The notes under the pieces are model-generated. The model was not told the origin of the DNA. It made no database searches and saw only the letters and a list, made by a program, of their open reading frames with translations. Below are positions 27,261 to 30,179 of a DNA stretch of 64,000 nt, piece by piece. Origin of the DNA: Nitrosopumilus sp. (GTDB lineage: Archaea; Thermoproteota; Nitrososphaeria; Nitrososphaerales; Nitrosopumilaceae); assembly GCA_965238275.1 (NCBI GenBank), contig OZ250186.1:800001-864000 (forward strand), read 5' to 3'. The position numbers and the translations under genes are program-made. How positions within the stretch are numbered: the first letter of the stretch is position 1; the number at the start of each line of letters is the position of its first letter.

Positions 27261-27314
27261 GGCCGCGCATTCTTGGGGCGTGATTCTGGCACTGCCTATA
27301 GTGAAAAGCGAAAG

Positions 27315-28604
27315 ACGCCATGTGTTGCCGTTGTAACGGTGATCATGGCATTTACCCTGTTGGACCTGAGAGTCGACACGAACTTGCCACTTATGATGGC
27401 GTGCGAAAGAGTGACTCAAGGTATGCGGATGGTCAAATACCGCTTTGACGGTGAATGGGAGTTTTCCGCTGGTCGGGTCCGATATGCTGCAAAGGAGGTG
27501 ATAGCACGTATTACATTGGAATAGACGTTCACAAAAAGAAATGCGTTTCAACCATCAAGGGCAAAACCAACAAGATACTAAGGCAGGCTGAATTTGACAA
27601 TAATGTCCGGGGAATAACCGAATTCGTCAAGATGATCCGCAAGGAAGGATACGTGCCGGCTACGGCCGTCTGCGAATCCACGGCCAACTACTGGATAGTC
27701 GTGCACGACATGCTCGAGGATGTCGGCATCAACACCCTGCTGGCCCACCCACACAACACGAAGATCATAACCGAAACCGTCTACAAAAACGACAAGGCAG
27801 ACTCGGCAAAGCTGGCAGACCTGTGCAGGCTGGACATGATCCCGGAGTCGTTCGTGGCCGACAAGCCCGCGCGGGACCTGCGCGAACTGACCCGCACCCG
27901 CCTGGGCATGAAGATGTACGCCACCGCCCCAAAGAACCGCATCCACGCGATCCTGGCCAAATACCCGCACGAGCAGCCCAAGGGAGGACTTTACGGGACC
28001 TGGACTCGAGTGGCTGCAGGCCGTGCCCCTGAGGGAGGTTGACCGCATGGCGGTGCAGTCGCATCTGGCCACCATCGATACCGTACTAAAGCAGGTGGCA
28101 AAATTTGAAAAAAAGGTAGCCGGGATTGCAATGAGCGACAGGAGGGCACAGCTGATCATGACCATACCCGGAATAGGCTACGTTACGGCAGTAACCATAC
28201 TTGCCGAAATAGTCGACCACAGCAGGTTTGCTGACGCCGAAAAGATGGCCTCATACGCCGGCCTGGTGCCAAAACACCACAACAGCGGGGAGACCGTCAG
28301 GACCGGCGGCATCACAAAACGCGGCTCCGTCTGGCTGCGCCGCGCCATGGTCGAGGCCGCGTTAGTTGCCGTCCAGCACGATGTCCGGATAGGGGCGCGC
28401 TACCAAAGACTGGCAACCCGCATAGGACCCATGAAGGCAAGGGTCGCCGTGGCCAGGCAGATGCTCGAATGGGTCTGGGAGATGCTTGAGCACAGCACCG
28501 AGTACAGGACCCAGGACAGGGATCTTGTAAGACGAAAATTCCAGAGAATAAAACGCATTGCCGACACACAACATCAACGGGTTTGGATGCCCGTAACACA
28601 TGGG
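27315..28604 (+). mobile_element. IS110-family element
   Basis: 2-bp core AG at both junctions (27313-27314, 28605-28606). Subterminal IRs CCATGTGTT (27318-27326) / AACACATGG (28595-28603). Encodes a DEDD/Ser recombinase. Confidence 0.88.
27317..27482 (+). ncRNA. Putative IS110 bridge RNA
   Basis: 5' hairpin 27317-27349. Closing stem 27360-27369/27473-27482 encloses two stem/internal-loop/hairpin arms whose loops match the element junctions. Confidence 0.8.
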
Positions 28605-28643
28605 AGTTCGTGCAATTTTTTGAGATCCTTTTTAAGAAAATAA
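27506..28643 (+). pseudogene. IS110 bridge recombinase, frameshifted
   Basis: YYIGIDVHK, CESTANYW, KNDKAD (DEDD RuvC); TIPGIG, YAGLVP..HNSG, TKRG (Tnp/Ser domain). Frame change near 27995. GGAGGTG is followed by ACG instead of ATG. Confidence 0.88.
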
Positions 28644-28658
28644 ATCCCAACTACAGGT

Positions 28659-30179
28659 ATGATTGTCAGCAAAATCATCAAGATAACACAATCTCGGGAA
28701 CTGTCACGCAAGATCGTGAAATGCTCCCGGGAAACAGACATCATTTACGACATGACGATCATGATGAAACTCACACATCCCAGAATCACGCAGTTTGATG
28801 TCAACAACCTGATAACAGGATGGCGCAGGGAATTCGGCCTGACCAACAGCGTCCGCATGCATGAGGCCGCCTCAAAACAGGCTTTCCAGGCGGTAGTCAA
28901 ATTCCGCAAGGCAAACCGGCTCAAGCACAACAAGCGCATCTGGCGCAAGAAACAGATCAAGCTGGGGAAAAAGAAGACGTACAGGCACAACAGGTGGACC
29001 GAGCCGTCTGGCCTGATGAGGCGCGGCAGGAAAACAACCAGGCTGCGCTCGCTGAATTCACGCGGAAAGCCAAAACTGCGGGACGACGGCACCGTATTTC
29101 TGCCCGGACTCGGGGAAGTAAGGCCGCGCGTAAAGATCCCGGAAGGCAGGCTCGTGTCATTCCAGATGATTGATGTTACGAAAAAAGTCACGCGCAGGAC
29201 GAAAGATTCTGACTGCGAATTCAGACTGTGCCTGCAAATCGAGGTTCCGGATCCCGAACCCGTGACAGACGGCGACGGCGACAGTTGCAAGGCCGGATTG
29301 GATCTTGGAGTCAGGCACCTTGCGGCAGTCGCAGACGAGCATGGGAATGAAAAACTGTACAATGTCCCGGGAGGCTGCAAGAGGCATGACGGCGACAGGA
29401 TTGATCAGCTGAAATCACTTAGATCAAGATGCCAGACAGGCTCCAGAAGATGGAAAGAGATCGGCCGCAAGATAGCGCATGAATTGAAAAATATATCAAA
29501 CAGGCAAAAACACAACGAGATCGACATTGCCAGGCGGATAACAAAAGGGCTGTCTGCGTTGTTCTTGGAAGACATGGATTTGACCAAGATGAGGCGATCC
29601 AACGGAGCAGCCTCAAAGACTGGGTTGAATCGCGAGATGGCATACTCTAGGATTGGAGAGTTTCGATGCCAGCTTGAATGGCAGATGAAAAAGAAAGGCG
29701 GCGTTGCAAAACGCGTGAAATACAGGTACACGAGCCAGAAATGCGCTGCCTGCCAAATAGTGGACAAGAAGTCCAGAAACGGCGAATCCTTTGTCTGCGT
29801 GTCCTGCGGGTGGTGCCACCATGCCGACAAGAACGCGGCAAAAAACATTTTGGATAATGACTGTCTCCATACGGAGGAGACTGGCGGCCAAGCCCACGGG
29901 AATCGTGGAGGCACCATTGCAGGTGTCGAGGTCGTCACAAGGCGCGAGGATCACGGATCGGATGGTTCTGGAATGAACGATTCGACAAGCCGGCTTGGAC
30001 CCGGCAACAAGGAGGATGATGTTGGAAGATCTGACAGAGCGCCGGAAAGAGCATCAGGACATGCTACAGAGAGATCTGTTTGCACGAACTTTCGCTCGCC
30101 GCTATACTACCTGAACGCACCTGATCGCACTATTGCATCTCGATCGTGGACGGGGGCTTGCTTGATATCGCGTACGTGA
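28659..30179 (+). CDS. tnpB: RNA-guided endonuclease TnpB
   Basis: RuvC-I GLDLGVR, RuvC-II LFLEDM, YTSQKCAAC...CVSC zinc finger, RuvC-III HADKNAAKNI, then a ~110-aa tail. Confidence 0.9.
   Translation: MIVSKIIKITQSRELSRKIVKCSRETDIIYDMTIMMKLTHPRITQFDVNNLITGWRREFGLTNSVRMHEAASKQAFQAVVKFRKANRLKHNKRIWRKKQIKLGKKKTYRHNRWTEPSGLMRRGRKTTRLRSLNSRGKPKLRDDGTVFLPGLGEVRPRVKIPEGRLVSFQMIDVTKKVTRRTKDSDCEFRLCLQIEVPDPEPVTDGDGDSCKAGLDLGVRHLAAVADEHGNEKLYNVPGGCKRHDGDRIDQLKSLRSRCQTGSRRWKEIGRKIAHELKNISNRQKHNEIDIARRITKGLSALFLEDMDLTKMRRSNGAASKTGLNREMAYSRIGEFRCQLEWQMKKKGGVAKRVKYRYTSQKCAACQIVDKKSRNGESFVCVSCGWCHHADKNAAKNILDNDCLHTEETGGQAHGNRGGTIAGVEVVTRREDHGSDGSGMNDSTSRLGPGNKEDDVGRSDRAPERASGHATERSVCTNFRSPLYYLNAPDRTIASRSWTGACLISRT

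Follow-up and report, generated by a model that had tools for sequence, protein, structure and literature searches.

Three mobile layers are very probably nested in the 64,000-nucleotide stretch of a Nitrosopumilus sp. contig analysed here (the window): a TnpB-carrying element of the IS630 type, an IS110-family element apparently guided by a bridge RNA into its left terminal repeat, and an empty copy of the same target in its right terminal repeat. The first layer would be a 1.5-kb TnpB element (27297-27314 plus 28607-30106) of the non-autonomous IS630/Tc1-mariner type, with 27-bp repeats and a TA duplication; the DDE_3 transposase that mobilises it in trans would come from the IS630 family of this genome. 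The second, the IS110 (27315-28606), would have entered the left repeat by bridge-RNA-guided recombination, being joined at an AG/CT core in one orientation; in the putative arm of the upstream non-coding region, one loop would copy the left half of the target plus the core (GCGAA-AG) and the other would complement the core plus the right half (AG-TTCGTG). The third would be the same site, left unoccupied in the right repeat. For the lineage, the conserved core of a repeat family would provide a landing site in many copies, and the re-programmed loops of its relatives would track the variants of that repeat. The features of the locus are as follows.

27297-27314, plus strand: left terminus of the TnpB element, outer 18 bp (TATAGTGAAAAGCGAAAG), one of 22 left-type termini in the genome; 27297-27298 are the inferred left TA duplication, and 27308-27314 supply the left target half for the IS110 together with the core AG (27313-27314)
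27315-28606, plus strand: defective IS110-family element, 1292 bp counting one core AG, delimited by its domains and by copy alignments
27318-27326, plus strand: left subterminal inverted repeat CCATGTGTT, read from the sequence
27370-27417, plus strand: target-binding arm of the putative bridge RNA, with compensatory changes in both stems and covariation of guide and flank
27425-27469, plus strand: candidate donor-binding arm, GCGGA...TCCGC, marked by a conserved motif
27455-28042, plus strand: N-terminal piece of the recombinase (DEDD_Tnp_IS110), its frame lost by a 2-bp deletion near 27989
28023-28604, plus strand: C-terminal piece of the recombinase (Transposase_20), its own stop removed by a 3' deletion
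28553-28564, plus strand: repeat ACGCATTGCCGA, the point of a 321-bp loss, from alignment with the 1612-bp and 1704-bp copies
28595-28603: partner subterminal repeat AACACATGG, 9 bp, read from the sequence
28607-28615, plus strand: inner 9 bp of the split left repeat, TTCGTGCAA, of which 28607-28612 are the right half of the occupied target
28659-30104, plus strand: tnpB, 482 codons backed by homology, in a frame without a stop of its own that runs on to 30179
30080-30106, minus strand: right inverted repeat of the TnpB element, one of 24 right-type termini in the genome; 30105-30106 are the inferred right TA duplication
30083-30095, minus strand: unoccupied 13-bp IS110 target in inverted orientation, found by exact match search

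The left and right repeats of the TnpB element (TATAGTGAAAAGCGAAAGTTCGTGCAA and TATAGCGGCGAGCGAAAGTTCGTGCAA, respectively) are identical at 23 of their 27 bp, a match longer than the 13 bp first noted. When aligned with ISDra2 TnpB, the protein retains the RuvC triad as D (GLDLGV), E (LEDMD) and D (HADKNAA), along with the CxxC pairs of the zinc finger. A TA duplication is likely, given one clean empty site in the relative G017, which is of equal length and has a single dinucleotide where the window's genome (G000) has TA-element-TA. A second empty site fits to within 1 nt, and a metagenome contig joins 27296 to 30105, the skipped segment ending in TA on either side and the shorter side of the joint measuring just 28 nt. 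The search for further empty sites in G017 was uninformative at the window's own locus (intergenic region diverged, length mismatched) and at L021 (one flank only), L023 (flanks diverged), L024 and L025 (no useful match) and L026 (junction repetitive and diverged). T-N-C, conserved in the left flank ahead of the TA, may serve as the TAM.

DDE_3 has 34 matches in the genome, 32 of them above the cut-off, and Y1_Tnp (PF01797) has none in this 99.9%-complete, single-contig assembly. Repeats homologous to those of the TnpB element are found in IS630 groups F and I (TATAGTGGCGATCAAAAGTTCTTGCAA, TATACTGACGCGCAAAAGT...), with 21 of 27 positions identical between the left repeat of group F and that of the TnpB element, and group F retains an intact 354-aa frame with HTH and DDE_3 domains, its transposase lying at 1873253-1874348 of the genome. 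No TnpB copy here carries transposase and tnpB together, and a resident IS630-family transposase of the DDE_3 type, with homologous repeats of its own, probably moves the element in trans. The sequence-only reading of the window had guessed at mobilisation by a DDE transposase, which is supported by the likely TA duplication, the IS630-homologous repeats and the lack of a Y1 TnpA. An IS200/IS605 (IS1341-type) TnpB was also considered and is ruled out by the inverted-repeat ends, together with the likely TA duplication and the lack of a Y1 TnpA.

The inserted element has no terminal inverted repeats, and the common AG is its sole duplication. Its two ORF pieces were identified by profile search (PF01548, E = 4.8e-19; PF02371, E = 2.2e-28), and both match the recombinases of IS621 and ISCro4 among the solved structures (PDB, including 8wt6). 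Its place in the IS110 family follows from the DEDD and Tnp domains, the lack of terminal inverted repeats and target duplication, the common core, and a guide arm with covariation. The window copy is a dead relic, without the intact recombinase gene of an autonomous copy as a result of the 2-bp frameshift and the 321-bp 3' deletion; the lost 321 bp belong to the 3' non-coding region that full-length copies keep. The TG after 27989 is present in contigs of the public runs X7 and X8. All four copies of the same lineage in the window's genome are broken by the common 2-bp frameshift, deletions and an insertion, so that excision by the lineage's own recombinase is not expected now.

Joining 27308-27314 (GCGAAAG) to 28607-28612 (TTCGTG), as read from the window, gives the 13-bp target GCGAAAGTTCGTG. 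At the left junction (27297-27324) the outer repeat TATAGTGAAAAGCGAAAG is followed by ACGCCATGTG, and at the right junction (28596-28619) ACACATGGGAG is followed by TTCGTGCAATTTT; AG occurs at both junctions (27313-14 and 28605-06) and once in each of 22 intact sites, and it forms the centre of an imperfect palindrome, CGAA-AG-TTCG. The passage from flank to IS110 across 27314/27315 is found without difference in contigs of the public runs X1 and X2, which belong to two studies; one of the two runs may be the window's own source sample. The claim that one window holds an occupied and an empty target was borne out, since 30083-30095 (CACGAACTTTCGC) is the exact reverse complement of the 13-mer; the same site is present in both repeats, and the right one therefore holds an unoccupied target. 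This is the sole match within the window at up to one mismatch, and shuffled windows gave a mean of 0.06 matches, with at least one match in 6 of 100 shuffles. Over the 2.2-Mb genome the 13-mer has 22 intact copies against about 0.07 expected (2 x 2.2e6 / 4^13), all of them within the termini of TnpB elements (11 at left and 11 at right ends, for about 24 elements).

The only other full IS110 copy with these guide loops (2148252-2149863 of the same genome) occupies the left repeat of another TnpB copy, at an identical point and in an identical orientation, and a fragment with the same guide loops, f1926, adjoins a left-type repeat variant. The insertions at left-type TnpB termini lie at 827297, 2149881 and 1926120, and a fourth was seen at the left end of a TnpB element of 43% identity. 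Relatives were also found in the repeats of IS630 remnants, at a right end (c1289) and probably at a left end (f1920). The sequence-only reading had proposed that the IS110 is directed at this family of terminal repeats, and this held, since position and orientation recur and the guides covary with the flanks; copies with the same loops in unrelated sequence, named there as counter-evidence, were looked for, and both the second copy and f1926 are at left-type repeats. Its description of one RNA-guided element programmed against another applies only loosely, since it is the repeat of the DDE transposon that is targeted and the TnpB/omegaRNA system itself has no visible part in it. Because relatives sit in IS630-remnant repeats, the target of the IS110 is the IS630-type repeat in general rather than the TnpB/omegaRNA system.

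The search for IS110 left ends covered 60 genomes out of a larger group. Exact 18-mer scans returned mostly chance matches, with an IS alignment extending beyond the 18-mer at none of 20 metagenome loci and at 3 of 17 genome loci; at L082 the 18-mer alone was seen, adjoining a repeat-like flank. In L010 and L012, two related left ends from other genomes, a flank matching the loop was not found at the predicted boundary. The window's genome also has a second, distant IS110-family lineage (28-36% identical) with an intact 371-aa gene, one copy of which is placed 4-6 nt further into the repeat than the AG at which the window's lineage inserts.

The arm that would bind the target is closed by an outer stem in which GAGTC (27370-74) pairs with GACTC (27413-17). 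Its 5' internal loop, CACGAACTT (27377-27385), is the complement of A-AG-TTCGTG and is followed by an inner hairpin, and its 3' internal loop, GCGAAAG (27403-27409), is identical to the left flank plus core. On the 3' side of the candidate donor arm, ATGGGAG (27455-27461) is identical to the right end of the IS plus core, and the motif GTGAATGG[G/C]AG is conserved across four diverged elements; a 7-mer scan of the IS against the donor gave no clear guide on the 5' side. Since 7-mer matches of the IS to target and donor are at chance level, single matches of this length were excluded as evidence. The single-sequence fold surpasses shuffles only modestly (z = -1.89, with 9 of 200 shuffles equally good), and the long downstream region of the full-length copies has no target match of at least 7 bases beyond chance. 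A search of 26500-31000 and of the locus of a full-length copy against Rfam assigned neither the IS110 ends nor the 3' non-coding region to a family and revealed no omegaRNA, its one match being an unrelated tRNA.

The pairing of guides and flanks was compared over 12 LE-bearing copies from three genomes (G000, the genome of L084, L085 and L091, and G057), which have six different guides. The 3' loop matches the copy's own left flank over at least 7 contiguous bases in 9 of the 12, over 6 bases in one and over 3 bases in two, the latter a duplicated pair; against the flank of a copy with a different guide, at least 7 bases were matched in none of 112 pairings. Mismatches to the own flank occur in three of the 12 copies (one base in f1926, two bases in f1089 and in f1091), and the right flank of L084 mismatches its own 5' loop. 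Both loops of L085 (TAGTTAG and GTGCAACTT) differ from those of the window, both of its flanks match them, and its 372-aa recombinase frame is intact. The matched flanks include non-palindromic ones such as GTAGTT-AG-TTGCAC and GGGCAAC-AG. We infer that a bridge RNA is produced and guides the recombinase.

In regards to how the site came to be occupied more than once, both arrangements of an IS110 within a repeat might be ascribed to homologous recombination, gene conversion or composite duplication instead of repeated targeting. The TnpB copies would provide homology on one side, and the 2-bp frameshift common to both IS copies is awkward for autonomous transposition; that frameshift implies that the element moved before it arose, was helped in trans, or was homogenised by gene conversion, and a conversion between the two IS copies alone would explain it. 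Moreover, the outer flanks of the two IS110-bearing TnpB copies are unrelated, with just 18 bp in common to the left of the IS, and the IS copies are 99.92% identical over 1250 bp whereas identity between the adjoining TnpB copies is no more than 90.7%. Given also that diverged relatives with different guides occupy variant repeats at the equivalent position, in this genome and in two others, we regard such an origin as very improbable. Marginally less probable still is a choice of site by DNA structure, or by a protein that recognises the small palindrome, with the loop matches being incidental. The core does lie at the centre of the imperfect palindrome, and a preprint on ISPpu10 suggests, for another IS110, a rule in which sequence and structure act together; however, six different guides match six different flanks, some of them non-palindromic, and structure could supplement base pairing rather than substitute for it. 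Repeated, guided insertion into the IS630-type repeat is thus the reading that we retain.

It is plausible that the insertion blocks mobilisation of the TnpB element, whose movement should be hindered by the splitting of its repeat. A stronger version of this, in which the IS110 is selected to disable such repeats, prefers left ends, spares the side of the omegaRNA 3' end and gives mobility back upon excision, appears improbable to us, although not to the degree of the two explanations above. It would fit with the division of the 27-bp repeat after base 18, with the intact tnpB frame and right end, and with the location of all three insertions by left-type TnpB termini, and of the fourth in the 43%-identical element, at left ends. 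In addition, 5 of the 24 right-type termini have AA instead of the core AG, which is readable as escape. However, the left-end preference anticipated from the window alone did not reach significance (insertions at 3 of the 22 left-type termini and at none of the 24 right-type ones, one-sided Fisher about 0.10), the relatives at a right and probably a left repeat of IS630 remnants imply that neither end is excluded, and the copies of this genome are dead. No neutralising function is needed to explain these data, since a multi-copy, host-harmless landing site accounts for them equally, as with the IS110s that target REP sequences. A rearrangement of tnpB between the two inverted sites had been suggested as well, and no rearranged or inverted allele was seen in the contigs, which are a weak test. 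In the contigs of four runs there was no joint between the IS110 ends and none from an IS110 end to the right repeat, excision, circles and rare alleles being undetectable in this way. Joints from 27314 to 28618 in the contigs come from other, uninterrupted TnpB copies, and one from 27286 to 30127 is a relative's allele.

The closest parallel is provided by IS4321 and IS5075 in the Tn21 repeats, which are likewise DEDD-recombinase insertion sequences with subterminal inverted repeats, inserted at one position and in one orientation in the terminal repeat of another transposon, either repeat being usable as a site. Here, the host is an archaeon, insertion is into the repeat of IS630-type elements and of their TnpB-carrying derivatives, the subterminal repeat has 9 bp, and the guide-bearing non-coding region lies upstream of the recombinase gene. 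The mechanism of bridge and seek RNAs is described in PMC11208160, PMC11208158 and PMC11187229, from which the following comparisons are drawn. IS621 has the same two protein domains (PDB match 8wt6), an upstream RNA whose internal-loop sides read opposite target strands, both with a CT/AG core, and likewise a multi-copy repeat (REP) as its target (PMC11208160, PMC11208158). In IS621 the 5'-side guide (LTG) copies the left-end flank (PMC11208158), whereas here the 3'-side loop does, so that the order is reversed and the element does not fall in the narrow, IS621-like IS110 group; it also differs from IS621 in its 9-bp subterminal repeats and in the 3' non-coding region of about 350 bp in full-length copies. 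The IS1111 group has subterminal inverted repeats of 7-17 bp (PMC11208160), a range that includes the 9 bp of CCATGTGTT and AACACATGG, and the seekRNA elements of this type (ISEc11) also share with the window's element a reverse order of the target stretches relative to the IS110 type (PMC11187229). However, IS1111-type elements encode their RNA downstream of the gene and have terminal extensions of 7 and 3 bp (PMC11187229), as opposed to an upstream position here, with both target-matching loops at 27377-27409, and extensions of about 3 and 3 bp. Natural re-programming among relatives has been reported for IS1111-type elements in the same source.

For the TnpB element, IS630-linked TnpBs (the DDE-6 branch) with symmetrical ends, and solo TnpBs between such ends, are described in PMC10691335, and the window's element may belong to that branch. 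The likeness extends to symmetrical IS630-type repeats, to transposase-less copies whose repeats resemble those of transposase-bearing elements, and to a tnpB 3' end close to the transposon end; here, the tnpB frame reaches the last base of the element. A eukaryotic analogue is given by Fanzor1 in Tc1/mariner elements, according to a review (PMC13565253).

The case adds an archaeal instance to a habit already known in the IS110 family, that of IS4321/IS5075 in the Tn21 repeats being similar. Our literature search found no published IS110-family element that targets the repeats of IS630 or TnpB elements, although the supplementary lists of PMC10691335 and PMC11208160 might include such elements. 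More speculatively, and with confidence well below even on our part, the IS630/TnpB inverted repeat could be a landing pad over which several elements compete, the bridge-RNA elements and the repeats they target evolving in response to each other. On this view, loops of at least two distant IS110-family lineages in the genome are directed at it. The variants of the guide loop follow those of the repeat (GCGAAAG, GCAAAAG, TCAAAAG and GCATAAG), and the loss of the core from AG to AA in right ends may be an escape from insertion. The window lineage may also represent a third layout in the family, which combines the upstream RNA of IS110, the guide order and subterminal repeats of IS1111, and a long 3' non-coding region. 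Within a small group of archaeal genomes, there is thus a natural series of re-programmed guides and matched targets that shows the choice of site by base pairing without experiment, and that offers ready pairs of guide and target for testing, including the intact relative L085. The locus also adds an archaeal case of TnpB on IS630-type ends, a link that has been proposed as a bridge towards the eukaryotic Fanzor1 elements.

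The genome to which the window belongs (G000) is a single contig of 2,216,668 bases with 52.7% G+C, in which the nested elements are arranged as follows, the left repeat, the IS110 ends and the sequence after them having been read directly:

upstream of the nested-element stretch, group II chaperonin gene
26325-27260, ROK-family kinase gene, one border of the stretch
27297-27314, TATAGTGAAAAGCGAAAG, outer left repeat of the TnpB element
27315-28606, IS110 element, starting with ACGCCATGTG and ending with CACATGGGAG
from 28607, TTCGTGCAATTTT, directly after the IS110 element
28659-30179, long ORF of 506 codons (the tnpB frame)
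30080-30106, TTGCACGAACTTTCGCTCGCCGCTATA, right repeat of the TnpB element, within the end of the 506-codon ORF
30130-31743, minus strand, GMP synthase gene, the other border

The two ORF pieces within the IS110 element gave the domains DEDD_Tnp_IS110 and Transposase_20, and the 506-codon ORF gave OrfB_IS605 and a Cas12f1-like TNB domain. Joining 27308-27314 to 28607-28612 yields GCGAAAGTTCGTG, the reverse complement of which, at 30083-30095, is the sole match to this 13-mer in the window at one mismatch or fewer; with a shuffle mean of 0.06 this is far above chance and confirms the intact inverted target that the sequence-only reading had placed in the right repeat. The ends of the TnpB element are true inverted repeats, alike over 27 bp with 23 identities, longer than that reading stated. 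Across G000 the 13-mer occurs 22 times, every time in the terminus of a TnpB element (11 left-type and 11 right-type); BLAST finds about 24 full or near-full elements of this kind, and fragments besides.

Four IS110 copies with both ends are present in G000, besides fragments of the left end (four) and of the right end (one):

window copy, 1291 bp
2148252-2149863, 1612 bp, 99.92% identical to the window copy over 1250 bp
502653-504356, 1704 bp, identity about 92-97%
1289009-1289808, internally deleted copy

The sequence-only reading had named, as the finding that would count against it, the same guide loops in unrelated sequence; this was not what we found, because the 1612-bp copy occupies the left repeat of another TnpB copy, at the identical base position and in the same orientation as the window copy. 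Since the two TnpB hosts are only 90.7% identical and their outer flanks are unrelated, a separate insertion is favoured over duplication of a composite element. Both IS110 copies also have a frame-breaking 2-bp deletion near 27989 in common, for which conversion of one by the other would be the simplest explanation. Beyond this, a deletion between the two occurrences of a 12-bp repeat has cost the window copy 321 bp, a ~90-bp insertion and further indels are found in the 1704-bp copy, and the fourth copy is missing its middle. Contigs of the public metagenome runs X7 and X8 have TG after 27989, which restores the frame, so that related populations harbour intact versions. Each of the four runs compared also has contigs with an internally deleted form, skipping 501 bases with CCGGATCAGG between (window 28052-28554); it matches G000 1289009-1289808, and this deletion derivative is therefore widespread in related populations.

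Upstream of the recombinase gene lies a region that folds into an arm in which the outer stem (GAGTC/GACTC) is followed, from 5′ to 3′, by an internal loop with CACGAACTT, an inner hairpin and a second internal loop with GCGAAAG, and when nine left ends from four genomes are aligned, compensatory changes are found in both stems. The 3′ loop has the sequence of the left flank together with the core AG, the dinucleotide at the IS110 junctions, and the 5′ loop is complementary to A-AG-TTCGTG. Guides and flanks were compared in 12 left-end-bearing copies, eight from G000, three from one other genome (loci L084, L085 and L091) and one from the genome G057 (L011), among which there are six distinct 3′-loop sequences (GCGAAAG, GCAAAAG, TCAAAAG, GCATAAG, TAGTTAG and GGCAACAG). 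Counted contiguously from the junction, the 3′ loop matches its own flank over at least 7 bases in 9/12 copies, over 6 bases in one and over 3 bases in two (a duplicated pair), and when guides are instead set against the flanks of differently guided copies, none of 112 combinations reaches 7 bases. Read by eye, the 5′ loop matches the right flank over 8 bases in the window copy, the 1612-bp copy and L085, has one G:T-type mismatch in the 1704-bp copy, agrees over 7 bases beyond a scrambled core in the internally deleted copy, and shows no match in L084. The cleanest case is L085, where both loops differ, both flanks match and a 372-codon frame is intact. The pattern follows the bridge/seek RNA logic published for IS621, IS1111 and IS110 elements (PMC11208160, PMC11208158, PMC11187229), and there is good support for RNA-programmed targeting of the inverted repeat of a transposon.

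The layout of the lineage is possibly a distinct one, mixed between IS110 and IS1111. According to PMC11208158, it is the 5′-side guide (LTG, A50-U58) of IS621 whose sequence is that of the flank ending beside the RNA-bearing left end, whereas here it is the 3′-side loop that carries the left-end flank sequence. Relative to the IS110 type, the IS1111 type has its two target-matching stretches in the opposite order (PMC11187229), which fits what is seen here. Subterminal inverted repeats, an IS1111 hallmark according to PMC11208160, are present in the window copy (9 bp; 27318-27326 and 28595-28603), but unlike in IS1111 the guides lie upstream of the gene. Full-length copies have a conserved G+C-rich 3′ non-coding region of ~350 bp (G000 2148252-2148614, locus L009; the 1704-bp copy; L084; L085), which has no match in Rfam and which the window copy has lost.

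As for the TnpB element itself, a relative's genome (G017), ~80-90% identical in the flanking genes, has an empty site where G000 has the copy at 708708-710217. This empty site consists of the G000 flanks and a single dinucleotide, at equal length and over 23 bases without a gap, and fits a TA duplication; a G000 site that is empty opposite a G017 element fits TA to within one base, and an X7 contig joins 27296 to 30105, the skipped stretch being TA...TA with two ambiguous bases and the shorter side only 28 nt. As to the enzyme that may mobilise the element, searches of G000 returned no match to Y1_Tnp and 34 to DDE_3. IS630 groups F and I of this genome have the repeats TATAGTGGCGATCAAAAGTTCTTGCAA, TATAGTGACGCGCAAAAGTT... 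and TATACTGACGCGCAAAAGT..., and the 354-residue protein encoded by group F is intact and has both an HTH and a DDE_3 domain. IS630-linked TnpBs with symmetrical ends, and solo TnpBs within such ends, are described in a section of PMC10691335, and the association is also cited in a review (PMC13565253). A further IS630-family element, of another group with ~15 copies in G000, lies at window 10638-11905; its repeats (TATACCAGCAATGAAAAATTCAT...) have the general pattern in common, with AA in place of the AG core.

In alignment with ISDra2 TnpB, the D-E-D triad and the zinc-finger cysteines of the protein are conserved, and its residues 400-482 have no match among solved TnpB structures. The gene is without a stop codon of its own, the frame being open to the last base of the element (window 30102-30107; all right ends), so that codon 483 is made of the TA of the duplication and the first flanking base. 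This codon reads as a stop (TAG/TAA) at 10/24 right ends and as Tyr otherwise, and in the window the frame reads through to 30179. The left flank of left-type termini has C at -1 in 22/22 cases and T at -3 in 18/22 (window 27294-27296), in contrast to the variable right flank of the 24 right-type termini (C 10, G 9, T 4, A 1), an asymmetry that fits a candidate TnpB TAM of T-N-C before TA, beyond mere site preference of the transposase.

The target of the IS110 is the IS630-type repeat family, not TnpB as such. An IS630 group-I remnant holds the internally deleted copy in its right repeat (an intact paralogue of this insertion site is found at G000 1872997), the fragment at 1920595-1920768 adjoins a repeat half beside another IS630 remnant, and the TnpB element that has the 1704-bp copy at its left end shows only 43% protein identity. 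L084 is inserted in a repeat variant, TATAGCTAAAAGCATAAG, that is uninterrupted at G000 952519, and at locus L082, 18 bases from the left end of the IS110 remain beside a repeat half. In 5 of the 24 right repeats (GCGAAAATTCGTG; G000 194030, 318223, 614929, 891004 and 2146754) the core AG is changed to AA, and these include the right repeat of the TnpB copy holding the 1612-bp IS110.

A second, distant IS110-family lineage (28-36% identity to the window lineage by tblastx) has an intact 371-codon frame at G000 1923482-1924594 and left-end fragments near 1974608, 1090153, 1092035 and 1201914. Its copy at 1974608 interrupts a left-type TnpB repeat (…AAAGTTCG|TGAATACATG…) at a point 4-6 nt further in than the site of the window IS110, and the left-end loop GGTTCGTGAATGGGG copies the flank there; guide-flank covariation is partial in the remaining copies (GTTGG with GTTGG). 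An IS66-family element (G000 644166-645933; 502-codon ORF, PF03050) with an 8-bp duplication of AAAGTTCG lies within the left repeat of another TnpB copy and overlaps the IS110 target.

The IS110 follows 3/22 left-type versus 0/24 right-type termini (one-sided Fisher ~0.10, own calculation), and right ends are used in IS630 remnants, so that a preference for left ends is not shown. In the left repeat the insertion puts 1.3 kb between the outer 18 bp and the inner 9 bp, which probably hinders recognition by an IS630 transposase. It touches neither tnpB and its right end nor the left flank. Rearrangement between the occupied and the empty site is conceivable given an active recombinase; no rearranged allele between them was seen, and the local IS110 copies are dead. 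From the sequence-only reading, RNA-programmed targeting of the repeat is retained and the functional extras are unsupported. The window IS110 is alike in kind to IS4321/IS5075 in Tn21 repeats and to the REP-targeting IS110s; the kind is already known, and this new member of it shows an unusually clear natural series of guide-flank covariation and possibly a layout of its own.
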